Shown in pieces: positions 5,868-46,796 of a stretch of DNA of 64,000 nt. Each line of letters opens with the position of its first letter. The stretch's first letter is position 1. Position numbers and translations under genes: made by a program. Location of the stretch: the NCBI GenBank assembly GCA_010093745.1, contig MU005976.1:62001-126000 (forward strand), in the 5' to 3' direction. The notes under the pieces were generated by a model that did no database searches, had not been told where the DNA came from, and saw nothing but the letters and a program-made list of their open reading frames with translations. Source of the DNA: Piedraia hortae CBS 480.64 (lineage: Eukaryota).

Positions 5868-7229
5868 ATGACGCTGCATTGCCAGAAATGTCGGGTAGAG
5901 CTGCGGTTGGACTCTTCGCTGCAGGCTCTCAATCCTGCGTCCTTTAAGATCCTCTCCGAGGCGGCGAAACCCGCGAAACTGCAGCCGGCAGAGCTCACTC
6001 CGCGCACCGCAACCGCACAAGAGCGCCGACGTCGCTATGATGAGGTCTCGCAACAGGCCGGGCCGCCTCTATACAAGAGAGAAGTCTCTTCATCGCATAT
6101 GGCCAAGGGTGACATGTCGTTTGTCAACGTCACAGATTCGATGACGGGCGATCAGGTTGTCAGGTCGCAAGAATACAGCCACCCAAAGACGGATGCTCGA
6201 AAGATGGAAATGGCCACGCGCTTGTTTGAAGTGCTGTCAGCACGCTCTGACATCGACCACCCCATTTGCCAAGATTGCACCGAGATTCTGCTGGAGGGAT
6301 TGCAGGAGCGCCAGGCCAGCGCAGTGCGGGAAAGAGATGCATACTTAGGCTTTCTAAAGCAAGCGCAGCAGAACATGCCCACCGATGAAGACACTAAAAA
6401 GACAAGGAAGGAGCTGGAAGGTGCCCAGCTGGAAGAGAAGAAGGCACTGGCTGAACTTGAAGTTCTCGAAGCGGAAAAGACGCGGATGGAGGAGGAGCTT
6501 GCGGCACTAGAGGCCGAGGCCGAGGAAGTAGAAGAGGCTGAAGAAAAGTTTTGGAGGGATCGGAACGCATTTGCCCAGGAATTGGCAGATTTTCGCCAGG
6601 AGAGGGACAGTCTCCAGGCCCAGTTGTCACACGACAGTAAACTGCTAGAATCTCTGCAGAAAACGAACGTCTACAATGACACCTTCTGCATTGGTTACGA
6701 TGGGCATTTTGGCACAATCAACGGACTACGGCTGGGTCGTCTGCCCGACCATCCCGTAGATTGGTCCGAGATCAATGCTGCTCTTGGTCAAACTGTGCTC
6801 CTTCTGGCGGTTGTCTCTGAGAAGCTGGGCTTCACAATTCCAGGCTACCGCTTGGTGCCTCAAGGATCAACGTCGAAGTTGATTCTACAAAACCCCAAGG
6901 CGGTAGTCACGGGTGCTGGGAAAACCAAAGGTACCGTCCACGAACTATATAACAGTGGGCACCTTCCATTTGGGCTGCATCTTTACGGCGGTTTTGACAG
7001 TGCCATGATAGCCTTCGTTGAATGTGTTGCTGCGGTTGGAAAGCACGTCGAACGCACTGGTGTCAAATTGCCGTATGAAATCCAGATTTCCAAAGACTCA
7101 GCCCGTGTTGGCGGGATGAAGATTTGCCTAGGTGGCGTTGGAAAAGAGGAGTCGTGGACCAAATCGTGCAAGTATCTGTTGACTTGTTGCAAGTTTCTTC
7201 TAGCATTGGTCAGTCGGTCAAGTGCTTGA
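5868..7229 (+). CDS. atg6: Autophagy protein Atg6/Vps30 (Beclin-1), 453 aa, intronless
   Basis: CQKC N-terminus, DIDHPICQDC, long coiled coil, KTNVYNDTFCIGYDGHFGTINGLRLGRL, WSEINAALGQ, WTKSCKYLLTCCK motifs. Confidence 0.96.
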   Translation: MTLHCQKCRVELRLDSSLQALNPASFKILSEAAKPAKLQPAELTPRTATAQERRRRYDEVSQQAGPPLYKREVSSSHMAKGDMSFVNVTDSMTGDQVVRSQEYSHPKTDARKMEMATRLFEVLSARSDIDHPICQDCTEILLEGLQERQASAVRERDAYLGFLKQAQQNMPTDEDTKKTRKELEGAQLEEKKALAELEVLEAEKTRMEEELAALEAEAEEVEEAEEKFWRDRNAFAQELADFRQERDSLQAQLSHDSKLLESLQKTNVYNDTFCIGYDGHFGTINGLRLGRLPDHPVDWSEINAALGQTVLLLAVVSEKLGFTIPGYRLVPQGSTSKLILQNPKAVVTGAGKTKGTVHELYNSGHLPFGLHLYGGFDSAMIAFVECVAAVGKHVERTGVKLPYEIQISKDSARVGGMKICLGGVGKEESWTKSCKYLLTCCKFLLALVSRSSA

Positions 7230-7893
7230 TCACCACCCGTAAGGATCATGGCGTTCTTCGTCACAAACGTTGATGGCCAAGTCGCGGAAAGTTTGCGCAG
7301 CGCAGACGGGAAGAGCAGAGCCAATTAGTGATAAACTTGTAAAAGCCGGTCTTGCTGTCCTATAAAAACAATAGAGAACAGTCAGGCTGCAGTGGAGCTG
7401 ACATAGCGCTCTGTCTTGGCACCTCTCGAATTGGAGCCTCGCCTTTCAGAGACTGTTCCGCAACGCACCTCACGTGCGAAGACTCTGGGTCAAACGACAA
7501 GAAAGTTCAAACAGCCCGCGCGCGAACAATTGGTGCTAGCCTTCATAGCTTATGTAACAATACCGGAGGTGATGTAAATCTTGGTGGATTTGCATAAAAG
7601 TCTTGATTATCCTGTGCCTTTCAAGCGTTTCGCTGGCACGGCGTGACAAATAGAATAACAAACAGCCCGAAAAAGAAGCTTAACAACTTGGCAAGTAGTT
7701 CTCCAAAAATAAATCAGGCATCTGTCTTCAGTCCCCCGCCCTTTCCCTCCCCGACACCATGAAGAGAAACACAAATAAACCCTCTAAACCCCGAATGCGG
7801 GCGAGTGCCTCTAAAGCAAGCCAAAGCCATATGCAGTGCAAAAGATGAGCTTTGCCGCTCCGTACTAAACGATACCTGAAAAGCCATCCGCTG

Positions 7894-8488
7894 ATCCGTT
7901 CCCGCAGAGGAACAAACTGAAAAAACTAGCGCCCGCATCTCACCTCGCAACCAAGACAATGAGTTCGAGCGTTACGAAGTTGAGCGTATTATGACCTATC
8001 TGAAGACAACAATCGAGCGCTTCGAGATTCTTGCCAAACAAATCAAGCAACTGCCTACCGACGCTGGAAAAGAAGGATTCACCCTCCCACATCGCTTAGT
8101 AGGAACTTCCTTTGTCGACTACAGGAACGTTATTAATCGAGATTATGGCGAGGAGAAAGGTCCCGAAGTTTTTGCGTTTCTACACGACTATGCTGCTAGA
8201 GCGGCTCCGATTTTATTGGATGTGTTGCGAGAGGCGTATGAGAGGGGCAAGGAGGAGAAAGTTGCTTTTAAAGCGGCTTGGTTGGAGTAGGCAAGTGTGT
8301 TTGTTGGAGAGGCTAAGGGACGGAGAAACCTTGCGCGGGCATCGGATTTGCCGGCGGGTCTTTGCCCCGTCTCATCGGTTGGTGGTCGGCGTGCCAGGGC
8401 GTTCAAGGCATGGCGGGTGAGGTTGAAAGAATCGGCAGACGTGAGAAAATGGCTTCGAGCTCGTCGATGTCTTCGCTTACGAAATTGA
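7894..8488 (+). pseudogene. Orphan protein-like ORF interrupted by an in-frame TAG (8288-8290); function unknown
   Basis: ORF 7991-8290 continues in the same frame as ORF 8297-8488 (AAWLE*ASVFVGEAKG…); protein-like composition but no recognisable motif. Confidence 0.3.
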
Positions 8489-9199
8489 CCGAGACAACTA
8501 GTCCAGTGGCATAGAGTGTTGGATGAGGTCAAGTAGATGGTAGATATTTCGCGTACGAGTCGTCGATAACAGGGATCTCGATGCCTTTTGAAAATGTGTG
8601 ATGTATTATGAAAGCTAGGCATTAGTCATGTTAAAGATTTTAGGGTATAAGTTAAAGAAGCACGAGGTGACAGCCACCGGTACGCCAATCTCCTTAGCCA
8701 GAGGATCCGTATGCTCTCGAAGATATTGGCAGTATTAGTGTGGAAGCATCACGTCCCCATTACTTGAATCTGAGTTGGATTGATAGCTCGCTCAAGAGTT
8801 GTTGGTCGATTACCTAATCAACTCAAAGATTCCAGACAGACAACCCAATTCTGCTTTGGTTCAAACTTCAGCAAGCGAACTCAGTTGATGCATTTAGTGA
8901 GCCAAGATAAATTATACACTTGCATGGAGGTCCATCGGAGCTACAGCTGCGGTTTTATGCTTGCTGTCAGAAGGATGTGGCACCCACCATGACCAGGATG
9001 CTAGACGGAAGTCGAAACTGTTACGGTGTTCAGAGCAAAGGGTTAAAAAAATCCCAACAATGAGGACAATCCGAACTGCTATCTACTGGGAAGCTAGGAT
9101 ACTATAAACCAATCCAGAAGCGCCATCCATACGCGCGTGGTAGCGAGCGTAGCTATGAATAACCAACAGGGCGCATCGGTGTATCAAATTCCCTTTGCG

Positions 9200-9575
9200 C
9201 TTAGGTGGCGCGGGTCGTCCCGCGCGCACTCACAGCCTCGCCGTAATAGAAATTCCTCAGGATTTCTACCTCTATAGAGAAAGTTTTCCCTGAGACGGAT
9301 CATTGTCTTGTTCATGCTTAAGGGCATGGTTTGCTGACGTTGTCCTGGCGATTGCGGTTAGACTGAGGTAGTGTGGAGAAGGTTTCGAGCCTCACCTCAC
9401 ATAGATTTAGACATCTACATTCACCTTTTAATCAGAGTTGAGTGTACATATTTGTATTTGATCTACGTTCCGCTTTATTCCTCGGAGGTTCACCTCTCCG
9501 ACACTTGCCAATTCAGCCGGGGACGTTGCGTACAGATGATTTATACATGATTCAGGTCGCCGTAGGGACGCATGA
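9200..9575 (-). repeat. Dispersed non-coding repeat, copy B (inverted)
   Basis: Reverse complement atgtagatgtc…cacactacctcagtctaaccgcaatcgcc…agcatgaac…ccgtctcagggaaaactttctctatagaggtagaaatcctgagg aligns with copy C. Confidence 0.7.
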
Positions 9576-11060
9576 CGGAAGGTTGAAATCATGTTTATCG
9601 CGGTATTTGTTCGTCTCGCTACCGAAGAAGCAGCACAACCTTACAGATGTTTTCGTGTGCATGTGTGTTACAAATTATAAAAACCAATGAGTACTCAACC
9701 ACCTCGGTCTCCAACGCGGAGCCTTCCGCGGCGACCTGCATAACCGTACCAGTTAGGTTTAAGTCCCACTTTTTTGATTTATGCATGATTCTCGGGCCGA
9801 GCCGTTCCACAAACCTTACGGATTGTCGAAGACACACAGTATTGCATCATCATCAACAACTCTAAACAACTGCGTTCGCAAACATCATCAGAAAATTAGC
9901 CAACCAGTATTCCAGTTTCCCGCGAATTCTCAAGTCAACAACCAGTAAGTTCCGGAGTCTCTCTTGCTCTGCATCTGAACTCCTCTGCGCAGGATGCGGC
10001 GATGCCAAGCAAATAGGGTTAACAGCTTGTCGCCGGGCTGCTTTCGACTCTCTAGAAGAAGAAAAATGAGGCCAGCCTCAACTAAATTCGCAAAGGACAA
10101 GCGGAGTATCGCCTTACCGTTTACTGTCCGCGCGGCCGTCACCTTCCCGTCACCCGCCACTTCGGCGTTGGCGACCAGTCCCATCCACTATCAAGCGATT
10201 GGGATGCATCTTGTCAAGTTCGCCAACAACTCTGTTGCTTGTGGGTTGCCATCACCTTTGCTGTGGCTCGCTCTCGCCTTTGGGCGAGTTGTGGTTTTAT
10301 TAATCCGACTCGAGGACTAAAGCCTAAGGAGAGGCGGACCACGCCTGCCTGGGCAGCCAGCAAGCGTCTGGCAATCCCAGTGTGGAGCGAAAGTTCCAGC
10401 ACACTGCGGCGTGTGTCAGATGGCCAGTTCAACTGTGACTGGTCGCATTTCTGGTTTTGTCTTGGTGAGTTGTAACCTTTCTTGCTTCTTAGATTGTTGT
10501 GTTGTTTTTGATGGCCGAGGTATGTATCCATCCTCTATGGTGTATTGACAGCAGGAATCTTTAGACCATGTAAATGAAATACATAGCTATGATATGTACA
10601 TCTTTCCCCATGTTGCTGTCAGAATACATCTTTCTGGAGATAGAGCTCCGGCTCAGCGAGAATATAAGCTCCTCTTCGGAGATACGAAGTTGTAGGCTAA
10701 AGTTTTTGTTCTGTCTATGTACAGCAAATAGTATACAAATTTCACCATCAGTTTTGGGCAAAGAATTGTTGTGCCAAATCTTGCCCAATCCTTTGTATCC
10801 TCAATCGGGTGATGTAGGGCTGGTCCCCGTCACAAATCATGTTCAGATGCAGAGGCTGATTCCCGCATATCGTAGTTTCATGCATGTTTCTTCTCATCAT
10901 GCACGTAGTGCATCGTCCCCTCCGGGATTCATCTCTGGCCTAGTATTTAGCTGAGTCATTCCCCCGAAGAGAGAGGGGGATGCACCCCTATATTCGTTCA
11001 CGTCATTGTTCCCCTTACTTTCATTGTATCCTCGGCTAGTTCTTTGCTTAGCCCGAGCTC

Positions 11061-11087
11061 GCTGCCATAGCTGCCATAGCTGCCATA
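11061..11087. repeat. Tandem repeat (GCTGCCATA)x3
   Basis: Three perfect 9-bp units seen directly. Confidence 0.9.
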
Positions 11088-11790
11088 ACTGTCTTCTGCG
11101 CCAGGCAGAGCCGCTCTGGTCGTGTTGCCGTCCTCGGTAACTTTGTACTTTTGGCAGAAGCATTTGTGGGCTTTGCAGAGGGATTGAATGAGTCTGAAAA
11201 ATCATATCTTGCTGTTCGCCGGGTGTTGAGTGTGAGATAGTAGCATTGTACAAAAATGGAGCAAAATCTCTTAGGTGTCTGGGACAGAAATGTCTTCCGC
11301 ACGCCCTATGCGGCACAGATAACTTCACTGGAGTAAACATAGCGACTAGGCGAAAACACATAATTTGAATGCATCCATTGCTTGGGCTTCAATTGGATAG
11401 TCTGGGCGAGAGAGAAAATTCGGGGATTAACCTAGTACCATGTTGGCAATGATGCTTTGACAACGGCCATAGAGAATTTAAACATCATGCCACGCGGGGA
11501 TCGGGACGAATGGAATTATATGTCAGACCTCTTGACACGAGTTGGATTATCCAGACTTTTCTCCATAATCTATTGATGGATAGCATTCGAATGACAGTAC
11601 GTGCACAACACTTATCGTTACACAATAGCAACGCATGAAAGTGGAACTGACTTGACATAACACGTTCAGAGGTCATATTCATGAATACGACGCGACGTGA
11701 CGCCCCCACGTCGACTTGCTTCTATTTGTTCCGCTTCCGCCTCTTCCACCTCTTCCACCACATCCCGTCTCGGAAACACTTCAGCTCATC

Positions 11791-12552
11791 ATGTCCAGCT
11801 GCACTGATCCAACTGCTGCCATGCGCGGATCCCACGAGGACATCGCGAAGGCAGTCGGTAAAAAGGCCCTGTTGGAGCTCGCTGCTGAAGCCAGAGCTTC
11901 GCGTGTTCCGGGTGAGCCTGTGCCTCCCGTATTGCAGTAATTACTCCCCTCACAATGGGCCCCAAATATTACTTCCAATTCTAACGAGACCTTTTCTAGT
12001 AATGTGGTCGGCACCGTGGACCTCGACATCATTATTAAGCTCCAGACGGTGGGTGAGAGGGCCATCAATGTGGAATACAATCCGAAACGCTTCACTGCGG
12101 CGAGGATCCGCCTCCGTGAGCCGAAATCCTGCACGTCAGTCTTTCCCAATGGCATGCTGGTTGTGGCTGGAGCAACGTCCCGCGCGAACTGTCGTCTTGC
12201 TGCGCGTAAGATTGCGCGCATGATGCAAAAGATCGGGTTTAAGCCACGTTTTTTGGGCTTCAAGGTCACCAACATGGTAGCGAATGCCCATCTGGGCTAC
12301 CGAGTTCATCTGCATGCACTGAAGGTCTCTCTGGAATTGGATGAGCATGTCTCGATGTGCTTCTTTGAACCTGAGTTGTGCTGTGCCCTGACATACCGAC
12401 TCGACAAGCTTTCAGTGGCCGTGTATGCCACTGGAAGTGTGGTGTTCGGTGGCGCCACCTCTGAAGATGGTATGGATGAAGCTTATAAGCATATTACCAG
12501 TGTTGCTCATTTTTTTCGCCTCGGGGAGGCCACAGATACCCAGCAATATTAA
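11791..12552 (+). CDS. Diverged TATA-binding-protein-like factor 1 (232 aa; exons 11791-11936, 12000-12552)
   Basis: Intron 11937-11999 (GTAATT…CTAAC…TAG) joins PVLH|NVVGTVDL. Both TBP repeats present: EYNPKRF, FPNGMLVVAGA, AARKIARMMQKIGF, FKVTNMVA, FEPELC, VYATGSVVFGGA. Confidence 0.9.
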
Positions 12553-13326
12553 TGGTCGCGGTCAGGAGATAGCGTGTTCGACACAGGATAACGGCCCATC
12601 GGTACAAGGTGTTCTTAAGGCATGGCGGGACTGGGTAAGCTAGAGCTCTCATGCTAGCTGGGCGTAGAAGTGTATACAATCTACAGACTAACTATTCTAT
12701 TCATGAAAGTTCTCTTTCCACTGATCCTGTATCGATTAACACTTGGGCCGTGCCCTTCTCGGAAAATTACATACTCTAATATCTTCAGTTTGCGTCTCAA
12801 GGACTGAAGCCTTAGGGTCTCAGCTAAGTGAGGAAGACGATGCATGTGTTTAGTAAGTGACTAATGGAGTGCTATCTTATGGCAAAGCGCGTAGAAAGCT
12901 ATAGAAAATGATAAACTGTAAACGAAACCCGCCAGCGTTCCTCAATGTTAGAGACCGAGGCGGGACCAAAAAAGAACTACCAAGTCAGTCAGATTCCAGA
13001 CTCCAACAATTATGCACCCAGAGATGTCGTGGACAATTCGTGCAGCTTGGAAGACTAAAAGCAAATAGATTGCATCTAATGCGCATCTCCTTCATGTGCT
13101 TATGCCTGCCCCGCTACTAACAGGAACTCGTGTGCACAATTCCAATGAGTGGAATCTTCAGATCAAATGTCCAGGCAAGCAATTGAGTTTGCACATACAA
13201 ATGTCTTACAAATGTAAAGTGTATAGTCTTGTACATAGAGGCTACATGTGGACTGCCCTTTCCTGTATAGAATATACACAAGGCTCAAGAGGAACCATCC
13301 CGCCCACAGCTCTGGATATGGCCACT

Positions 13327-14042
13327 TTACTTAGCCCGTGAGTCTCTTGAACGGCTTGTATCATCGGCAGAGCTGGACACTTTTACATGGCTTATGAGGA
13401 TCGGACGGATGAAGTCCAGCGCACGATCAATGTCTTCTTGGGACTTGGCTCCAGTAAAAACAATATTGCCGTTATCAAAAATTACCAGCGTCATCTTCGG
13501 ATCGAAGATTTTGAAGGTCATTCCTGGAAATAGTTCGGTTTCGTAAATTGTCTGCGCCCCATACTTACCAATGTTCAGCTTATTCAGATCAAGCCTAACT
13601 CCTAGAGAGCAAGCAGCAACTACGTTGTTAAGTTCGTACTTGTATAGACGAACCTTGTAGCCTATCCGCTGTAGGGATCGGGCGAACTTGCGTGCGGCGA
13701 GCTTGTTGTCCTTTGGCGAAGAGCAGCCCATTACGTTCATGATGCCGGTAGAGAACAGAAGGGCGGTCGCTGGCGGATTACGAAGACGCAGGATTGCTGC
13801 AGGAAATCTTTTGGGATTATATTCCACATTCCACACATTTTGTGCTACTTTGTGGAGGTCCAGGATGACATCCAGATCAACGCGAGCGGTGGTGTTTCTG
13901 GGGCGAAACATCAGTATTATGATAAGGGTATCTGAAGTCACTGAACTTACGTGATGTAGGGTGCCGAGAGGTCCTTTGAGGGGTCCAGTGATTCCAGTGC
14001 ACGCTTGGCCTCAGCGAGACATTTTCTGTGTGACTTCTCCAT
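13327..14042 (-). CDS. Diverged TATA-binding-protein-like factor 2 (about 220 aa; exons 14042-13951, 13897-13327)
   Basis: Intron 13950-13898 (GTAAGT…CTGAT…CAG) joins PYIT|NTTARVDL. Motifs EYNPKRFPA, TALLFSTG, AARKFARSLQRIGY, NNVVAAC, YETELFPG, LVIFDNGNIVFTGAKS; start codon less certain. Confidence 0.9.
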
Positions 14043-14822
14043 TGGCGCTGATAATATCTTCTGGCAGCAAGTCTTCTGGGTGCAGCTTCAGGATCGTATG
14101 ATGTGTTCAGCAAATGTTCAACGCTCCTGTATCAGTGCCCCTGTTTGTGCCGGCCTTGACGTAAGGCTCACATCCCCAGCATACTGCCATCATAAGGTGG
14201 TCCGAGCACTTATTGATTTTGCATGCACACTGGGAAAGCATGTGAAGTATGCTACATCAAAACAAAACTCTGCCCAGGGTCCGCAATATGATCAGATCTA
14301 TTCGACCGATCCAATACTGAAAAGAGGGGTTCGGACATTGCCTCAGACTGCAATAAAGGCTAGTCCATGAGAAGGGCACGTTTGAGAATATATAAATCCT
14401 GTTTACTAGTAGTAGAGCTGGATTGGCCCCAACTTGGGGTTGCGAGCCGCTGTGGTGGAGAACTTCTCCCAGCTGGTGAGTTTGGTCGAAGTGTTCTTGT
14501 TTGCAAGTTTTCACGAACAAGTAAATGACACAGCCAACCCCGCATCAACGATACACAGTTACCTAGCAAACCGCCCAGAAGCATCCGCCTGGTTCTGATG
14601 GGCCCGAAGTTACACAGCTGCAATAATCATCATTCATGTGGAACTGGCTATGGAGTATCAAATACTCCAACCCGCAAAAGAGCAGTTTATTCTACTTACG
14701 TCATTGGTTGGTTTCATGCATGCACGCCACTTTTACCCCACATTATCAGACCTCAGCCGCACGGCTCACAACCTCCCAATCTTCTTAAGTATAGCTTTCT
14801 CACACCTTTAACGGTGCCCAGC

Positions 14823-17800
14823 ATGCCCGAATGGCTGAGGCGATTGAAATCGAAGAATAAATCGCAAATCTTGAATGTACAATCGTCCACTTTCAAAGTT
14901 TCCACGTCACATACCTCGGCTTCAAGTTCGCAAACTTTATCACCTTCGCAGCTACATAATGCGCCGGTACAGACTCCAGCTCCAACAGTAGTTTCGGGGA
15001 ACCCTTTTCGAGATAAAAGCCAATTGATGCTTGACGCCCTTGCCAGTCTTCCCGCCGACGACCGCAAATTTGTGCAAGAGCTACTCGGTCCAAACAGTGA
15101 CGTTGTGAGAGACGTAGCGGTAGTGATGGCCCTGAGGGGGCGAAATCAAACTAAAAGGTCCGATCAGTATATTGTCGGGATGCAGAAAATGGCTTGCCAG
15201 ATGATGCAATTTGCGCCGGTACTTGACGTCGTGACGAATCTGAAACCGGAAGCTCTTAGTTTGCCGTGGGCCGGTGTTCGCTCTCTATTGATGGTAAGCA
15301 GCAAGTCCATAATTGTAATTCTTGGTAACATCATCTTTATAGGTGGCACAAAAGGTTTACGAGCACAGTGAGTCGCTTATGAAGGGAATCGAAACTGCGC
15401 TAGACACAAGCTACCTCATAAACGCATACTTTGACATATACAGCCAATTCAATGATACGGCCACGGTTCGGCATTTGTATGACAATATTGTCAGACTATA
15501 CAGCCTCATTTTGAAATTTTTGGCGCATGCCCATAACACATGCGACATGAACAGCATGGAACGAATGGTACACTCCTTAACAGGTGTGGTTATACCAAGC
15601 TTCAAAACTGATCACGACGAAATACTGAAGACTGTTGAATCACATGCAAAGCTTTGCAATCTCGAAGTGTCCGAGGAGCAGCGGGCTTGGGTTGACAAGC
15701 AACTGGAAGCGCTAAATAAGGCCCAAAAAGAGATCAATGATGGAGTCAAGAGCGTGCAGCGAACGCTGGATCTAAATGCTCTCCCGGTAGCTCCTGGGGC
15801 GGCTTATGACTCAATAGACTACCATAATGGTGACCAAATTGGCGAATTACAATTGTGCCTGGACGGTACCCGAGTCCATATCAAACAGAGGATACTAGAT
15901 TGGGCCACCACTTCCAATGACCAAAGGGTATTCTGGCTGTCTGGAAAAGCAGGGACGGGTAAATCCACGATTGCTCGAACCATTGCGCATGAGCTAGGGG
16001 AACAGGGGTTCTTAGTAGGGAGCTTCTTTTTCAAGCGCGATCGCGGTGAACTGAGCCGTGCGCGTAGTCTCTTTCCTACCATAACCCGTCAAATGGCGAA
16101 TTTCATACCCAGCATTGCCCATAAAATTGCTGCCGCCTCTCACGGATCACCTCCTGTTAATGAAAGGCCATTGACAAGTCAATTCGACACGCTTATTAAA
16201 GAGCCCCTTTCGGGGTACAGCACTGGTCTTGCGACAGATGTCAGGGTGATTGTTATCGATGCCCTCGATGAGTGTGAGGACTGGAGAGCGATAGATCACG
16301 CCATGACCCTATGGCCGAGACTTATTGCCCATACCTCAATGAACTTGAGAGTGTTTGTGACGAGTCGGTCGGATGATAAGATCGGAAGTAAGCTCGGCCA
16401 ATTAGGACCTCATGATCTCCAGCACGAGAAACTTGAAAGCTTGCAGACGAGCACTATCAAGAAAGACTTGACCATATACTGTCTTGACGAACTCAGGAAG
16501 CTTCGTGAAGAAAGCAAGCACGAGTTGAGCTACGATGAACTGGGAGATTCCTGGCCAGGAGAAGAAGTTGTCAATAAACTCGTTGAGATATCTCACCCAC
16601 TGTTCATTGCGGCTTCCACAATATTCAGGGATATAAGCAACAGTCCACGAAGACGAGTACGGCAATGGGTCGACCAGCTCAGTTTCACCGGTTCGAGAGC
16701 GCTTACCGAGATTTACTTGGACATCTTGAATCGAGCTGCTAGACACAACGAGGAGTGGGCTGATCAATTTCACCAAGTAATAAAGCCGATTGCTCTATTA
16801 CACTTCCCGCTCACCATTCCGGCACTTACAGATTTGCTGGGAGACGGAGACAACATGGCTGTTCCTAACGCTCTCAAACCTTTGAGTTCGGTAATCGAAT
16901 TTCCAAGTGGCAAAGATCTGAAAGCGGGCTCACGGGCTACAGTTCGGATATACCATGAATCGTTTCGAGCCTCTCTGGTGGATCCAACTCTCAAGGGCAA
17001 ATCTCCGTTTTGGATTGAGAAAGGAGAGACACACGCTACCCTCCTGAACAAGTGTATTGGCTTGCTCAAAAACAAGCTTAGCCGCGATGTGTGCAAGCAG
17101 CAAGATCTTGGAACGGAGCGCAAATTCGTGTCAGTCGAACATGTCTCCGAGCACATCCCAGAGTCGGTACAGTATGCTTGCCGCAACTGGGTCCACCATG
17201 TAGTTCATAGCAGTCAGACAATACAAGACGGTGGACAAGTGGATCGTTTCCTTCGTGAATTTTTCCTTGTTTGGACAGAGGCAATGGCTTGGCTGGACGA
17301 GCTCGGGGAGATGGTTCTAAGCCTCAAACAATTGCAAAAGGTCATAGACGTAAGTATTGTTTTCGTTGTCGGTTGGAGAGAGTGTAACTAATTCTTTTCA
17401 GACAAATTTCTCGCGGGGAGTGCAATATTTTGTCGCCGATGCTTTGAGATGGATTTCAGCACATCGAATCTTGATCAGCGACACACCACTCCAAACATAT
17501 CTCTCGGCATTAGCCTTTGCGCCAAGCAACAGCACCGTGCGAAACACCTTTAAACATGAAGTGGAAGCCCTCTTGCAAGTCTGGCCACCAGTAACCAGAG
17601 ATTGGGGCCCCGTATTACAAACGCTTAAAGGGCATACACGTTGGGTATCGGTGATAGCACCGTCGATGGACGGCAAAAGGCTTCTGACCACCGCTTTGGA
17701 TAAAACGGTACGTCTATGGGATGTTGAAAGCGGTACCGAGGAAGAGTTGATGGAATTTAACTCAGAATGCACCTTTTCAGTTCCCACTGAAGAAGGTTTT

Positions 17801-19474
17801 GCAATTATTGCCGAGTTGCGCGGAGGGTATTCGAGATGGAGATTGGAAGAAGACGTCAGACGCATCGATTTAAAGCTTCCTGGCGTTGCAAAATGCGTTT
17901 CTGTCTCTCCAAGTGGCCGATTTGCTGCATGGGGCCTCGATATGGGGGGAACCTATCTGTGGGACGGCGACATTGAGGCCGGAGAGTTGCTTGAGGTCCA
18001 ACCCTCTCCAGTGCGGTGCATGGCATTCTCATCCGACAACGAGACATTAGTGTCCGGGTCTTCCGATATCTGGAAATGGAACGCAAAATCTGGGCATAAA
18101 AAGATTTGCCACGTGGATGCAGACATTTATCACCTCGCCATTTCGCCGAACAACGTTTATGTGGTCTTTTGGTCCAATGGCGCATTACGTGTTTTTTGTC
18201 ATATTACCCAAGAGATTGATCAGATCATGCGAGTGGCACTGGGTGGGCTTCACTTTTCAACGGTTACTCCAGATAGTCAAAAGGTTTTGTTCTCGAACGA
18301 GCAAGACCTCTTCCTGTACGACTTTGGAACCAGATCTGCACCGACAAAACTGTCCTTAACAGGCTATTCCCTCATGGAATTGATATTTTCGCCTGATGGG
18401 AGAACAATCTGGGCTGGGGATATCCTTGGATCGGTGATTCAAATGGACGCAGAATTGGTGATGAAAAGTCAGCAGCAAGGTACTGGCACCGCTACTGTCG
18501 CAATGTCAGCGGATGGCAAAACACTCGCCTCATTGTCTCGGTATAATCAGCTCAGTCTTTGGAACACTGAAGCGCAGATCTGCAAACAGCGATTATCAGA
18601 TGAGCGACTCGTCAACTTTCCTGCATCTCGAAGCCTCCTCTTGATCTCATCAGATTGTTCGTTGGTAGTTGTGGCGTGCCTAAACTATACCCCGGGCAAC
18701 GCGTTGATGATATGGAATATCAAACTCAATGAACTGAGAGGGCTGAGACACAAAGCGGACAATATTTCTGCTATTGTGATCGCCCCAGATAGCAAGACTC
18801 TCCTTTGTGGTTTGCACAACGGTCAGATCTGGATCTATGACTTGAAAGGGGGCGTCCGGCAGAAGATAGTTGATGCGCATACGGACAGGATCAGAGAGAT
18901 CGTGTTTCATCCAGAAGGGCAAGGTTTTGCGTCGTTATCAAACGACAAAACGATCAAAATTTGGACTCCTCGTTCGCAAACACCATTGGTGCTAAGCGAC
19001 AAGCTCTGGGTGCATAGGGCATGTTTCTCGGCAGACGGTCATATGCTCTATACTCTACACAATAGCATTGTTGTCTCCGAATGGGACATCAAAAGGACTT
19101 GTAAGGTGCGAGAACTTGACAAGAAGATCAAGTATGATTGTTCTGGTTCCTTATTCCTGAATGGCAGCTTCGTGCATGCCAACTTCCTGCATTTCTTGCA
19201 CATGTTAGACGCCGATAAAGGCAATCAAGTTGAGACGCAGGCAGATATGTCGGGATCAACCGAAGCCCCTTCAGTGTTTGGAAACCGCCAAGTTTGGGCC
19301 TTGCAATCATTTCGCTACGATCAAGTGTGGATTACTGTTAATGGTCGGAAGATGCTCAAGCTCCCTGTTCAGCTGATTCAAGTCAATTGGGTTTCATGCG
19401 GGCGAACAATGGCAATTCCCAACAATGAGACAGGATTTACAGTATTAAATTTCACACGCAAGGTCTCTTTGTAG
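14823..19474 (+). CDS. NLR-like NACHT-WD40 protein (HET-E-like architecture), 1516 aa; exons 14823-15293, 15343-17349, 17402-19474
   Basis: Introns 15294-15342 and 17350-17401 are GT-AG and keep frame. Helical N-terminal domain (SLPWAGVRSLL), Walker A GKAGTGKST, Walker B VIVIDALDEC, FVTSR, YACRNWVHH, and C-terminal WD40 repeats (LKGHT…DKTVRLWD; HTD…DKTIKIW). Confidence 0.92.
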
Positions 19475-19959
19475 GGCAAAGTTGTCAATATGCCGGAACT
19501 GGCTTGAGATTCCCGCCAAGAGAACTACTTTGTGGTAGGATATTCATTGGCGATGTATATCATATTGAGTTGTCTTTTTAACAGGACGTATTGCACTGTG
19601 CTTTAATAGAATACTTCCACGACATCATATCATCCTTCTCCTTTTACTTCATGCACCGCATCATCATTGGCCTTGACTGTACCCGCAAGCCCATATCTTC
19701 GTATTTCTGAAGCGGCCTGGGTCCCCAATACCAGTGTCGCTGGACAGTGCGAATGGCTATGTGTGTAACTGGCTCTCCACGAGGGGACGTCAGAATAGAC
19801 ATTATGTACCGGTGGGCTGGTGACGTCACGTCATACACTAGCAGAGCGCATTCACCATGTCACATATGACATGACCCTGAGGGAAAAACTTTGTGAGGGA
19901 AAAACCTAGGGTGCAACTGGTAGTGTATGAGGTATCGCTGACTTGCTATGCAAGTGCCC

Positions 19960-20211
19960 CGCATATGCGCTAGCGGCGATGCTTGAATCCAACAAAAGTA
20001 TGAGATTATTTGGTAGGCAATGGTGTGTGAGGCACATGTATGTGTATGTAGGTGTGTTGAGGTCATGTGAAGCGCGGAACTTCACCTCACACTAACATAA
20101 GTCTAGCCGCATTTACCGAGACCACGTCACCGAGCACGCACAGAGCATGAACGGCACCGTGCCTCGTCCCAGGGATAACTTCCTCCTGTGGAGGTAAAAA
20201 CCCTGAGAAGC
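19960..20211 (+). repeat. Dispersed non-coding repeat, copy C
   Basis: atgtaggtgt…cacactaacataagtctagccgcatttaccgagaccac…agcatgaac…tcgtcccagggataacttcctcctgtggaggtaaaaaccctgagaagc. Confidence 0.7.
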
Positions 20212-31736: not shown

Positions 31737-32591
31737 ATGCGCCTCCTTACACGTATCCACCTACGCCAACTCCCAACAACATATACCCTTCCCCTAAAGC
31801 GCAACATGTCCCTCGACAAATCCATCTTCAACGCTGACCTCTACACCTCCCTCCACCGCTTCTGGTTCGGCGACAGCTCCAACCGTGATTACTCCCAAAA
31901 CGCATCCAAATGGTTCGGCATGGGCCAGACGCCCGCCCAGAAAAAAGCCTTTGACAACGAATGCGCTTCCCATTTTTCCCGCGCTCTCGAAAGCATTTCC
32001 CCCTCCAAATACCCTCTACGCGAATGGCAAGGCTACGACCAAGACCTCCAACACGCCCACGAAATCGCCGCTCCCTTCCTGGCCCAACTCAAATCCCCAC
32101 CCAAAACCGAGAACTCAAACGAAGAAACCCTCTTATCAATGTGCATCCTCCTCGACCAAATCCCGCGAAACATCTATCGGGACAAGCAAACGCTGCCGCT
32201 GGTCTATAACCACTACGACCGCATCTCGTTCGCGCTCGTAAACGCATCAGTTGATGTTATCCGCACGACCTTGAAAAAGGTTGGTGGAGGTGGGAGGCAT
32301 CCGATGGAAGTCATGTGGCTGTGGATGCCGTTGTTGCATTCAGAGTACCGCCCCGCGCATGAGCTTGTGGGGGAATTCGTGCGGGATGTGAAGAATCGGT
32401 GTGCGCCCGACTCGCAAGAGGTGAAGATGATGGAGATGGCGGAGAAGAGTGCGGTTGATCATAGGGAGATTGTGAAGAGGTTTGGAAGGTATCCGCATAG
32501 GAATATTTCGTTGGGGAGGGAGACGACGAAGGAGGAGAAGGAGTATCTTGTTACTGCGGATACGTTTGGTGTGAGTCAGGATGGGACGTGA
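31737..32591 (+). CDS. DUF924-family protein (start uncertain: 31710, 31737 or 31807)
   Basis: FWF, ILLDQIPRNIYR, MPLLHSE, HREIVKRFGRYPHRN…LGRETT motifs characteristic of DUF924. Confidence 0.85.
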   Translation: MRLLTRIHLRQLPTTYTLPLKRNMSLDKSIFNADLYTSLHRFWFGDSSNRDYSQNASKWFGMGQTPAQKKAFDNECASHFSRALESISPSKYPLREWQGYDQDLQHAHEIAAPFLAQLKSPPKTENSNEETLLSMCILLDQIPRNIYRDKQTLPLVYNHYDRISFALVNASVDVIRTTLKKVGGGGRHPMEVMWLWMPLLHSEYRPAHELVGEFVRDVKNRCAPDSQEVKMMEMAEKSAVDHREIVKRFGRYPHRNISLGRETTKEEKEYLVTADTFGVSQDGT

Positions 32592-32640
32592 GGGGATGGT
32601 ATTGGGTTGGGGGGTTTTATGGTATGAGGTGGAACATTTT

Positions 32641-35087
32641 CTATGAGCAAAGCTTTGGGGTACTTTCGTGTTCCTTCTGCAGACATACGTATGTCAATCT
32701 GCGGTGTAACCATGTAAAATTGATCGGGGACTCGTAGGATGTCAATGGATCGGGACTATCTGGCCGATCATGCATCCAAGTTTGATTGTCTATCTTCTCA
32801 GCCAGTTGATTAACCCTATCATTGATTCCTTCTTTCGTCAGTCCGGGAGTAAAATGGTAACGAACATTGGCGGCCTGAATGGACTCAGTCCAGCGGTTCA
32901 TGCGCCTATTTTCGCCGCGTGCGTTCCACTTCTCCGTGAGGAGGCGATGGTCGGTGAACAATTCGACAGGCGTGGTGTTCGATTCAATGTAGGGGCGGAG
33001 TGCGCGTATAGCGCGGACGACGGCAAGAAGCTCGCGTTCAGAAGTGTTATAGTTACGTTCCGCGGCCGAAAGACCTTTGGATAGAACCGCGATGGGTTTG
33101 TTGGCTTGAAATGCCATAGCCCCTGTGGCAAAACCCAAGGCATCAGTATAAATGCGCATGGGCTTGTTCGGGTCGTGAAGCTGCAAGGGCGTGGAGTTTG
33201 ATAGGCAGTGCTTAACGGCGAGGAACGCGTCATGGTGCTGGGTCGTCCAAAGAAACGGCTGGCTTGTCAGGGAGTAGAGCGGGGCCGCCGCGTCGGCGAG
33301 CCCCGGCGAGAATTCGCGAAACCAATTTGCGGTGCCGAGGAACTGTTGCAGTTCGCGGGTTGATTGTGGCTCCGGCCAGGAGGACATTGCCGCGATGTCT
33401 GGTTAAGGCGCGATATGATCGTGGGCGATCGTGTGCCCGAGGTACTTGACGGAAGTGAGTCCCAATTGGGCCTTAGTTGTGGAGTGTTCGAGGCCCCTGG
33501 ATTCCAGCAAAGCGAGCACCGCTTCGAGCTTGGCCGTATGGTCGGCGTGGTCGTTCGTGTGTATGATAATATCGTCAATATACGCAGAAGCGAAGGACGC
33601 GACTGGGAGGAGCAAGTTGTCTATAAACTTCTGGAAAATGGGTGGCCCGTTCGTGATTCCAAAGGGCATAACGAGGTACTCGTAGCATCCGTGCGGCGTT
33701 TTGAAGGCGGTAAAACGTTCTTGGCCGGGTAGGACGCGGATGTTGTAGAATGCATCCTTTAAATCGAGAACAGAGAAGACTTGTCCCGAGGCTGCCTTGC
33801 GAAGGAGGTCCATTAGGCGCGGCAAAGGATATTTGTCTCGTTTGGTGATGGCGTTAAGTGGACGATACTCCACACACATACGTAGGGAGCCATCTTTTTT
33901 GGGGACGAATAATGGGTTACAAGTCGCGGTCGGGGAGGCGGGACGAATCCATTCGCGTTCGAGGGCATGGGTCACGTAGGCAGTCATAGCCCTATCTTCG
34001 GGGACCGAGAGGGTTCTGAGGCGTCCTCCATCCGTCATGATTCCTTCGGTTTGGAATGAGCATACAGCCAGTTCTTGCGTAGATGCGAAGAAAGGTTCAC
34101 CGAGTATGGCTTCCTCGTGCAGGTTCGGGACCAGGTAGAAGGTAAAGATGCGGTCGTCCACGGTCAAAAGTATTGTAGACAAATTGGTTGCCACCGTCTC
34201 GCCCACGATGCCCTGTATGGACACTGTGGTTTCTTCCGACGGGCCGTCCCAAAGGGACGCCCGAAGGCAGTTGAGTTCTGCGCCCGAGTCGAGGAGCGCC
34301 GTTACTTGTTTCCCTTGGACGTTGAGTTCGCGGCGACGGCCTTTTTTATCAGGCCGAGGGATGGCACTGATACTTCTCAACATCACAAAAGTGGCGGGAC
34401 TAGTGGTGGCGAGACAAGGGGTGGCGGCTCCTGAAGCTTTGGTGCAGCTGGTGGCGGCACATGTGTATTTGGTGCATCCAGTGGAGGAACATTGCCGAAT
34501 GGAAAATCTAGGTACGATGCGTATCTGTGTGGCAGTTGTCCAGTGGATGCATTATAGGGTAGGGCAAAAGCTGCTGGCGCATTTGAACGTGCCATTGGCG
34601 GTGGTGGCATGTACTCTGACGGCGTGCGTGGACGCGGTGGTAGACCGTGCTGCGGAATAGCCGGACATGGCGCGTTTCGGGAAGGGGCTTGCGGTAGTGC
34701 CGACACGGAGAGTGTAGTAACGTTTAGGTTAAGAGTCGTGAGTATTGGTTGGCGGTACGTAAAGGTAGGTTGAGATTCGCGGGTGGTTCTGAGAAGGGGC
34801 TTGCGGACGACTGAATGATGAAAACACTGCGTTTCCTGGCAAAGAATTTCGAGGTTGGCACGAAGGATGTGGCCGCAAACCCCCTGCCGTCCCACTCCAG
34901 TGGTTCCGGCAAAGTGAGTGGGAACACCAGCTGTGTGACAATCTTCCCTGTTCCTCCCTGTGTACATGCCTCTTGTTCTTAAGAAGACCTTGAGGGCCCG
35001 TCTAAACGACACCGGCACTTGAAGGAGCGCTGACGAGTCAACGGTGTAGTCGTAGTCCTTAGAATTCAGTTCCATCTTAGTGGCCAT
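32641..35087 (-). mobile_element. Ty3/Gypsy LTR-retrotransposon remnant: gag-like ORF, protease, RT, RNase H (integrase missing)
   Basis: Protease ALLDSGA; RT FVPKKDGSLRMC, VLDLKDAFY, MPFGITNGP, YIDDII; one in-frame TAA at 33403-33405; RNase H YTDA…ERELLAV…FTDH; similarity ends near 32840. Confidence 0.92.
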
Positions 35088-44391: not shown

Positions 44392-46796
44392 ATGTCTCGC
44401 GAAACGAGCCTCCTATTGACCTTCTTAGCTGTGCTGCTGCTTCTTACGCCGCAGGTGGCAGCATTCGGGGCGGGTAACATAGCGTCCATCTCCAAGCTTG
44501 AAGGACACAATTGGCGGCATGGCGACATTGAAGACACGCTCAAGACTGTAGCATTCATAAAAGGTCACAAATGGACATCGATGATGGTAAAGCGTGTCTA
44601 CTTTGGCAACTGGCTGCGTGATTATTCCCAAGCAGTTGATGTCGGAACCCTCAAGGGGGTCCCGGCAGATACAATCCGCGTTCTGGTCTGGGTTCTGGCC
44701 TTTATGGCGTTTGGCTACGCAACAGAAGAATTTGAAGTGACCGCCGAACGTCTTGGCTGTTATAGACCCGAAGAACATATTGATAACCCTAAAGACTATG
44801 CCGATAATCAAGATGCCCGTCAGTTCGACAAGCGTCTCCGCGGACCTGTAGATCCGATAGAACTGGCCATTGACCCAAACACTGGAATGAAGAATTACAT
44901 TGCAAATGAAAGCGGTCATTGGTCAACTTCTCTGGGATATGTCAAGTGGAGCTTCCTTCGCAGTATCCACTACGGACGGCAGTACACCAACGGCGGCGAT
45001 CGAGGGCGTAAAGAAGATCTTTATGAAGCGCTGAGATGCCTTGGCCAAGGTTTGCACTGTCTAGAGGATTTTGGCGCCCATTCGAATTATACCGAGCTGG
45101 TGCTCCGTGAAATGGGCTTTGACAACGTCTTTCCTCACGTTGGCACTCAGACGGCTATCCATCTCCATGGAAAAAGAGTGTTTCCGTTGGTAGGTCAGTT
45201 CCCCCCCAACCACAGGGCTTTTATTTTGATGAGTATTAGGTAACGGGAACCTTTGGCGGAGTAGATTTCCTCCACAGTGTCCTTGGCGAGGCCACTGATC
45301 ACGTACGTATTATTCAGCAAATATCATTATAACTGACAATTTAGATCTCCCAAAGCGAGGTCGATGAGACCGAAGTGCAGAAGCTAGATGCAGCACTTGG
45401 TCAAGCTGCAGCACTTACAGGGGCAGGTGGCGGCGGCGGCTCTCGCAGTTTCGATGGCAGCAGCGGTGGAAACAGCAACATGACTGACTTTACAGACGTG
45501 TTATCCAAAATACCGGGAACACGCGGCCTAATTGAGGAAGCAATGCAACTACAGTCCAGCTCAGCCGAGCAGGCAGCCCAAATCGAGCAACAAGGCTCCT
45601 CACGTGCTGCAGCAGGCGGTCCCGCCGTCAACGTTGACGTCCAACAAGTTGTCACCCGAATCTATCCCATCCTCGCATTCCGTGACAAAGTCATGCGTAG
45701 TGTGGATGCCTTTGTTTCGAAGATCCCGGGATTAGAAAAGATTATCGACACCATCAGCGAGAAGCTGACGCTATTCATCATGGGATTGTTGGCCCCTTTT
45801 GTCAAGCCTCTAATCGCAGCCGCAAGCAATGCGTTGAAGGAAGGCAGCGGCAGCGTCGTCAGCAGCAGCCAGAAGCAGCAGTTTCTCGTCTGGAACGATC
45901 CCACAAGCAGTGACCCCACGCACTCGATGCTGTCCAAAGACCATTTCTCCAACATCCTGAACCCTCCAGCGGGGGAGGTCGCATCGGTAATCCTTCAGTA
46001 CGTGGTCCCGCGCGTGCTTTACGCTTGGGACAATACGAGCGCCTCGACGGATGAGATTATGCACGATATCTCGCGCGTCTTCCACCACCCGGCTGCGCGG
46101 GATATGAACTGCGAGGTTCACAGGAACATGTTCCACGTGGTGGAGCAGTGGGTCCGGAAGCGGTCAGATGGAGGCCGTGGTCTGAATGACATCTTGAGCG
46201 CGGATAGCGTGAAGAAGGGCCATAACCACCAGGTGCAGGATTTTAAACAGAGCTTGCAGCCGCTAGAGCAGCAAATGATGCAGATGCAGGCTATGAGTGC
46301 CAGGGCGCAGGCGCAGACGACGAGAGGCGGGATGGACGGGCAGGATGATTATGGTCGAAAGCAGTATGACCAGCAGCAACCGGGGTACGGCCAGCCATAT
46401 GGTGGGCAGTATGGGGCTCCTCAGCAAGGCTACGGGCAGCAGTATGGCGAGCAATACGGACAACAGCATGGACAACAGCATGGACATCAGTATGGCCATC
46501 AGTATGGCCAGCAGTACGGACAACAGTACGGACAGTACCCAGCTCAATATCCTCCGGGACCGCCGTACCCCGAAGGACCACAGTACGGACAGAATGATCC
46601 GCAACCGTACGGTCAGCCTCAGCAGCATCATCATCACCATCAAGACCCTTACAATCAGCAATCATACAACCAACAGTCCTACAATCAAGATCCCTACAAT
46701 CAGCAAGGTTACAACCAAGGCTACAGTTCTCACGGCCATCACAACCACAGTGGTGGATACGACCCGAACCAAAACTACAACACGTACAACTACTAA
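44392..46796 (+). CDS. het-c: HET-C domain protein with Q/G/Y-rich C-terminus (770 aa; exons 44392-45189, 45240-45302, 45345-46796)
   Basis: Signal peptide, AFGAGNI, WRHGDIED, RVYFGNWLRDYSQ, YRPEEHIDNPKDY, GLHCLEDFGAHSNY, PLVTGTFGGVDFLHS, DPTHSMLSKDHF. Confidence 0.95.

Follow-up and report, generated by a model that had tools for sequence, protein, structure and literature searches.

What becomes of TBP when one fungal genome carries it in several diverged forms? In ascomycetes the protein is regarded as a general factor that exists in one copy and hardly varies. Piedraia hortae, a hair-colonising fungus (an ascomycete and Dothideomycete of the order Capnodiales), departs from this picture. 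A tblastn search of the window, i.e. the whole stretch of 64,000 nt that was analysed, finds two TBP loci, termed here copy 1 and copy 2, and only these two. The annotated protein P0002 of P. hortae CBS 480.64 (230 residues) must therefore be the product of a third gene. It probably sits on the same scaffold, as P0002 and the proteins of the window are listed on contigs of equal length (287,431 bp). Do these genes encode factors that work at promoters, and if so, at which?

The two genes of the window lie tail-to-tail, 775 bp apart. The reading frame at 12000-12552 on the + strand is exon 2 of copy 1, an intact two-exon TBP-family gene with a spliced frame of 232 codons. Its parts are as follows.

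11791..11936, + strand: copy 1 exon 1, with the ATG at 11791, as read from the sequence
11937..11999, + strand: copy 1 intron, 63 nt, phase 2, GTAATT...TTCTAAC...TAG, inside the codon before N69, as predicted from the sequence
12000..12552, + strand: copy 1 exon 2, with the whole two-repeat TBP core and the stop codon TAA at 12550-12552

Exon 1 encodes a 48-residue N-terminal tail and two bases of codon 49 (His, equivalent to yeast Q68). This tail can be aligned to the start of P0002 and is unrelated to the N-terminal tail of canonical TBP. The intron is of the canonical GT..AG type with a CTAAC branch site, and its predicted removal recreates the junction PVL-H-NVVGTV that is present in P0002. 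Pfam PF00352 matches copy 1 in two stretches (E 2.4e-33, 114.3 bits, the cut-off being 22.9). The upstream exon and its intron are additions to the first-pass annotation, as are a deletion in the stirrup, an insertion before strand S2' and the third paralogue outside the window.

Several other features of the window deserve mention. An Atg6/Beclin gene is found at 5868-7229, and the 4.5 kb or so between it and copy 1 (7300-11790) hold no open reading frame longer than 154 codons, so that this part is either gene-poor or made up of intron-rich genes. On the - strand at 33403-35087, RVP and RVT_1 reading frames represent a retroelement fragment, and there is a strong positive GC skew at 32001-34000. 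A reading frame at 45375-46796 (+) matches the C-terminal part of the Het-C domain (E 1.8e-91), the N-terminal part being probably in an upstream exon.

Which residues of canonical TBP has copy 1 retained? Yeast residue numbering was fixed by phmmer alignment to PDB chains, in which residues 2-172 of the reading frame lie on yeast TBP 71-238 (1rm1_A) and on human TBP 169-336 (E 2e-32 against the human TBP core). A MAFFT alignment with canonical fungal TBPs and an hmmalign table give residue states that agree with it. HMMER, MAFFT and hmmalign alike uphold what the first-pass annotation had read by eye, namely that F99 (in NPKRF), F116, N69, N159 and E186/E188 are kept and that F190C, F207Y, T124A and T215G have occurred. 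N69 is the first full codon of exon 2 (12001-12003). The claim that the DNA-kinking Phe pair of repeat 2 is lost also stands, as the alignments put Cys and Tyr, not Phe, at 190 and 207. The replaced codons, located from the alignments, are these.

12166..12168, + strand: GCT, Ala replacing canonical T124
12379..12384, + strand: TGC TGT (TGC at 12379-12381), Cys-Cys replacing canonical F190-P191
12424..12426, + strand: TAT, Tyr replacing canonical F207
12448..12450, + strand: GGT, Gly replacing canonical T215

The four positions that are Phe in canonical TATA-binding TBP thus read F, F, C, Y. All four Phe are present in 253 of 271 gathered TBP homologues, a set that consists of the best hits of searches and is biased toward top matches, and the F-F-C-Y combination is found there only in copy 1 and P0002, a pattern that goes beyond chance. 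N69, N159, T124 and T215 contact central base pairs in TBP-DNA crystal structures; copy 1 keeps both Asn and has Ala and Gly for the two Thr. The list of changes extends beyond that of the first-pass annotation to P191C, I194T, V203S, L205A, L114S and Q158T, and to the loss of conserved lysines (K120M, K211S, K218T). In addition, the C-terminal stirrup carries a 2-residue deletion relative to the normal one, and five residues are inserted ahead of strand S2'. On the conserved side are the motif F-E-P-E-L (E186-P187-E188-L189), V71 and V161, and the basic residues R98, R105, R107, K138 and K145 of helix H2 and the stirrup, with K133R. If invariant positions are defined as those at least 95% identical across 168 canonical TBPs, the core has 90 of them, and copy 1 is changed at 43, of which 18 lie among the 49 of the N-lobe and 25 among the 41 of the C-lobe. 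Its identity to canonical TBP cores is 36-42%, and it thus lacks the near-universal conservation of the core, which is put at about 80% from yeast to human (PMC3142196, in excerpt).

Set directly against canonical TBP (yeast SPT15, the human TBP core), copy 1 has in common the two PF00352 repeats, the saddle, N69/N159, F99/F116, E186/E188, L189 and the basic H2; it differs, among others, at positions 190, 191, 207, 124, 215, 114, 205, 120, 211 and 218, and in its shorter stirrup, its insertion and its unrelated tail. The saddle is seen in an AlphaFold model of the copy 1 core built on a 10-row alignment, which is confident (pLDDT 91.4) and shows the ten-stranded, four-helix pseudo-symmetric arrangement of TBP. 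The best PDB matches of this model in Foldseek are TBP-DNA complexes (TM 0.88-0.89, rmsd 1.1-1.3 Å), and all of the top 40 are TBP chains (TM 0.80-0.89). A full-length model of P0002 has a pLDDT of 84.2, with an N-terminal tail that is helical at a pLDDT of only 53-66. Formal alignment and structure model together therefore return the residue states first listed by eye, on a confident TBP fold.

What would such changes mean for DNA binding? In excerpts of the structural literature, the C-lobe Phe pair is described as kinking the TATA base step 1-2 and the N-lobe pair as kinking step 7-8 (PMC3142196). The Phe at the lobe position corresponding to 207 is more than 90% conserved, and its change to Tyr affects TATA binding; bacterial TBP-lobe homologues have Tyr or His there (PMC7221094, in excerpt). 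The same excerpt names two C-lobe glutamates (C.L3.2 and C.L3.4) as contacts of TFIIB/Brf, and a basic N-lobe patch as the shared docking site of TFIIA, TAF1, Mot1 and Brf1/2 (PMC7221094). E186/E188 of the yeast numbering correspond to the TFIIB-contacting glutamates, and they are kept in copy 1. Likewise R98/R105/R107/K138/K145, with K133R, would make up the basic patch, if the positions are mapped as we infer.

The reading preferred here, to which a rough probability of 0.45 is given, is that copy 1 is a putative lineage-specific fungal TBP-related factor whose upstream DNA-kinking surface has been remodelled. The protein is predicted to fold as a normal TBP saddle. Its N-lobe would be largely in working order, with the F99/F116 wedge for the downstream end of the TATA box, the Asn pair and the basic H2/stirrup surface. 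The DNA face of the C-lobe, on the other hand, would be a rebuilt one, with Cys/Tyr in place of the F190/F207 wedge and with P191, I194, V203, L205, K211, T215 and K218 changed. A protein of this kind could hardly form the canonical, double-kinked TATA complex and would still meet the partners of TBP. It would then bind other core-promoter DNA, either weakly or with a changed preference, or else titrate TBP partners, and it would act beside a putative canonical TBP and two other paralogues.

The first-pass annotation had proposed a non-TATA-binding factor or decoy that still binds TFIIA and TFIIB. This idea has a basis in the sequence, as the C-lobe Phe pair is gone, the TFIIB-contacting glutamates and the basic H2/stirrup residues are kept and the fold appears intact. 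Binding of TFIIB by copy 1, however, cannot be assumed: it is left in doubt by the stirrup, which is two residues shorter, in a C-lobe where 25 of the 41 invariant positions are changed.

How far does the likeness to TRF2 go? As described in the excerpted text, TRF2/TLF shows about 40% identity with the core of TBP and binds TFIIA and TFIIB but not TATA (PMC3142196, PMC8461331); it lacks three of the four Phe and stems from a duplication on the bilaterian stem (PMC8461331, in excerpt). Metazoan TRF2/TLF/TBPL1 and copy 1 can be likened on paper as fast-evolving TBP paralogues that have lost intercalating Phe, and to that extent the earlier label 'TRF2-style' holds. It holds as an analogy only: TRF2 has lost three of four, whereas copy 1 has lost two of four, the C-lobe pair alone, and one of these is now Tyr. 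TRF2 is bilaterian and copy 1 belongs to a single fungal lineage, a comparison made by description only. An independent origin is to be expected, because the host is an ascomycete and TRF2 arose by a bilaterian duplication.

The Tyr at 207 raises a different prospect, since it is still aromatic and some DNA wedging may for that reason survive in copy 1. Could copy 1 then be neither a non-binder nor a decoy but an alternative TBP that bends DNA at AT-rich or TATA-like boxes, though with a changed preference or less tightly? Tyr207 would serve as the wedge and Cys190 would be tolerated. Besides the aromatic side chain, such a protein would have at its disposal N69, N159, V71, V161, F99 and F116, all retained, and a saddle whose geometry is unchanged in the model. 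There is also a precedent for altered reading. In excerpts of PMC1636458, positions 194, 203 and 205 face TATA base pair 2 and set specificity, and TBPm3 (yeast TBP with I194F, V203T and L205V) accepts TGTA; changes at these positions are known to alter the recognition of TATA without destroying it. The same three positions are changed in both window copies, as I194T, V203S and L205A in copy 1 and as I194T, V203T and L205V in copy 2 (two of three identical to TBPm3). TBPm3, however, was made in the laboratory, has its four Phe intact and can still bind TATA, whereas the changes in the window are natural and stand among many others. In copy 1 these include seven on the C-lobe DNA face beyond those at 190 and 207 (P191C, L205A, K211S, T215G, K218T, Q158T and V203S) as well as L114S, K120M and T124A in the N-lobe, and the reported effect of Phe to Tyr at this position on TATA binding (PMC7221094, in excerpt) also counts against this reading. 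A DNA-bending alternative TBP is accordingly considered rather unlikely.

Returning to the TBP-related factor, comparison with P0002 shows where copy 1 has been free to change. The two proteins are 82% identical, with 41 differences over 230 aligned positions and one 2-residue indel. They have C190, Y207 and the stirrup deletion in common, so these states arose before a duplication and are still present in two genes with open frames. The differences are unevenly spread: the N-lobe has 4 in 87 positions and the C-lobe 18 in 81 (Fisher p = 0.001). The tail that precedes the N-lobe differs at 12 of 49 positions, as counted by eye; since it has diverged as well, the conserved block is the N-lobe itself. 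This block may reflect either purifying selection, with a C-lobe that is free or diversifying, or a gene-conversion tract over the N-lobe. Among the C-lobe positions that differ are 191, 205, 213, 215 and 218, which face the DNA, and these fit relaxed constraint as well as specialisation.

Might copy 1 and P0002 then simply be young duplicates that drift toward loss, with no function, C-lobe changes that represent decay and a frame that is open by chance? Neutral mutation was simulated to the observed divergence between the two, and the frame stayed open in 304 of 2000 runs, which makes an open frame weak evidence of selection. The heavy toll on canonical-invariant C-lobe positions in copy 1 agrees with decay, as do the continuing divergence of both copies at DNA-facing positions, the position of copy 1 in a gene-poor stretch with an NLR gene adjoining, and the failure to find a relative above 45% identity outside the species among 1.84 billion representative proteins. 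Yet there are two copies, both open, and the splice signals of copy 1 are canonical; its model is a confident one; the residues for partner contacts are all kept; and the uneven divergence is unlike the uniform spread that neutral decay predicts. Decay without function is given a real but minor share of the probability. RIP was considered as a cause of the divergence and is ruled out by the indices of the copies in the window (TpA/ApT 0.54 and 0.77; (CpA+TpG)/(ApC+GpT) 1.49 and 1.20).

Copy 2, on the opposite strand, has the following structure.

13951..14042, - strand: copy 2 exon 1, with the ATG at 14042
13898..13950, - strand: copy 2 intron, 53 nt, phase 2, GTAAGT...CAG, in the codon before N69, skipped by a contig from public run X1
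13327..13897, - strand: copy 2 exon 2, with the TBP core (Pfam PF00352), a C-terminal tail and the stop codon

Pfam PF00352 matches copy 2 with E 1.2e-47 and 160.1 bits, and the spliced translation is identical to the annotated protein P0007. Run X1, which is not on record as RNA, gives a contig over copy 2 and none over copy 1. The contig skips exactly 13898-13950, joining 13897 to 13951, and this exact removal of the intron implies that copy 2 is transcribed and spliced. It extends 431 nt past 14200 and would reach the start of an NLR gene on the opposite strand. The latter, at 14598-19474 (+) and directly upstream of copy 2, consists of three slightly overlapping reading frames that approximate to one fungal gene, with a weak DUF7708 match followed by NPHP3_N/NACHT and then WD40 repeats.

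In the first-pass annotation, copy 2 retains T215 and each of the four Phe but has T124M and P187T (EPE to ETE), and hmmalign bears this out. Copy 2 further carries V71T in addition to its changes at 194, 203 and 205. It is changed at 20 of 49 invariant positions of the N-lobe and 17 of 41 of the C-lobe and is 43% identical to canonical TBPs, its best non-self matches being at 38-45%. By their sequences, then, neither copy 1 nor copy 2 is the canonical TBP, and copy 2 may itself read a non-TATA box. The pair within which a division of labour had been envisaged is, with P0002, at least a trio, and copy 2 is no more a canonical TBP than copy 1.

Where did these genes come from? The intron has the same position and phase in both window copies (phase 2, within the codon that immediately precedes N69). 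This argues for duplication, at the DNA level, of an ancestor that already had the intron. Beyond the species, orthologues are hard to find. An exhaustive phmmer search of 1.84 billion representative proteins gave 3173 hits at E<=0.001, none of them above 45% identity except the query, and no copy 1 orthologue outside P. hortae was found there (best non-self match <=45%). Of 70 candidates that a word-index search put forward for copy 1, 6 were hits. A profile built from 8 divergent TBP-like proteins gives canonical TBPs scores that match those of its own members, and it added no clade member among the best 120 of its 802 hits at E<=1e-10.

Phylogenetic trees offer a scattered picture. FastTree joins copies 1 and 2 at a support of only 0.33 and places them among protist TBPs; a quick IQ-TREE run gives an unresolved star; a careful one sets copy 1 beside a paralogue from Acrasis (90/79), on branches of maximal length (stem length 10). 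Taken at face value, the FastTree placement and the Acrasis join would point to horizontal acquisition of the TBP-like genes from a protist or virus, in place of divergence of fungal duplicates. These joins, however, connect the longest branches and are for that reason likely artefacts. In the careful tree, moreover, a weakly supported group (69/85) unites copy 2 and a TBP-like protein from the Dothideomycete Salinomyces thailandicus (P0004), and an AU test does not reject (p = 0.40) a clade of the three Piedraia copies with P0004 and its relative P0128, a group that was named after the trees were seen. This result is compatible with a Dothideomycete paralogue clade and does not demonstrate one. 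The shared intron likewise sits poorly with transfer. Third-position composition of the two window genes is native (GC3 0.59 and 0.53, as compared with 0.50-0.73 in neighbouring genes), and a search of 7000-20000 for mobile-element flanks found no repeats, direct or inverted, of at least 25 nt. Horizontal transfer is therefore regarded as very improbable. As the FastTree and IQ-TREE trees are dominated by long branches, no origin is drawn from them.

The Salinomyces protein is a second, divergent TBP-family protein in another Dothideomycete, with Leu at both T124 and T215. P0128 has five derived residues in common with copy 1 (T111S, T112C, V203S, S209T and R220E). The two differ from the Piedraia copies in that they have all four Phe and a full-length stirrup, and they are 35-41% identical to the window copies. 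Dothideomycetidae may hold an unrecognised lineage of TBP paralogues.

A wider proposal can be made for the three genes together: that P. hortae runs an independently evolved TBP-related-factor system of at least three paralogues, the first in fungi, which tunes non-TATA promoters and is convergent with TRF2. In each of the paralogues, apparently on one scaffold, the DNA face would have been remodelled in a different way. Copy 1 and P0002 would be without the upstream Phe wedge, and copy 2 would represent a natural TBPm3-like triad with T124M and V71T added. The docking surfaces for TFIIB and for the N-lobe regulators would be retained in all of them, and as a set they would steer or adjust transcription at non-TATA core promoters. 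A system of this extent is a speculative reading and is held to be doubtful.

How does this sit with what has been described for fungi? In the excerpted text of a survey of transcription-factor repertoires in Fusarium and other ascomycetes, the TBP family has an expansion index of 1, i.e. it is single-copy (PMC9934661). The notion of expanded TBP genes on Fusarium accessory chromosomes is contradicted by the same excerpt. A 2025 preprint (10.1101/2025.10.03.680374) sets yeast apart from animals, in which several TBP paralogues with non-redundant functions have evolved. A literature search found no paper describing fungal TBP paralogues of this kind. Copy 1 thus joins a class that is already known, the TBP paralogues, as a new, lineage-restricted member; the proteins are already publicly annotated under generic names.

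If the copies are decaying duplicates, theirs is an ordinary case. If the reading as divergent TBP-family genes is true, three of them in one fungus constitute a natural experiment in the re-tooling of TBP. And if copy 1 is functional, it would represent a natural separation of the two DNA-kink roles of TBP and would offer a tractable parallel to TRF2 outside the animals.
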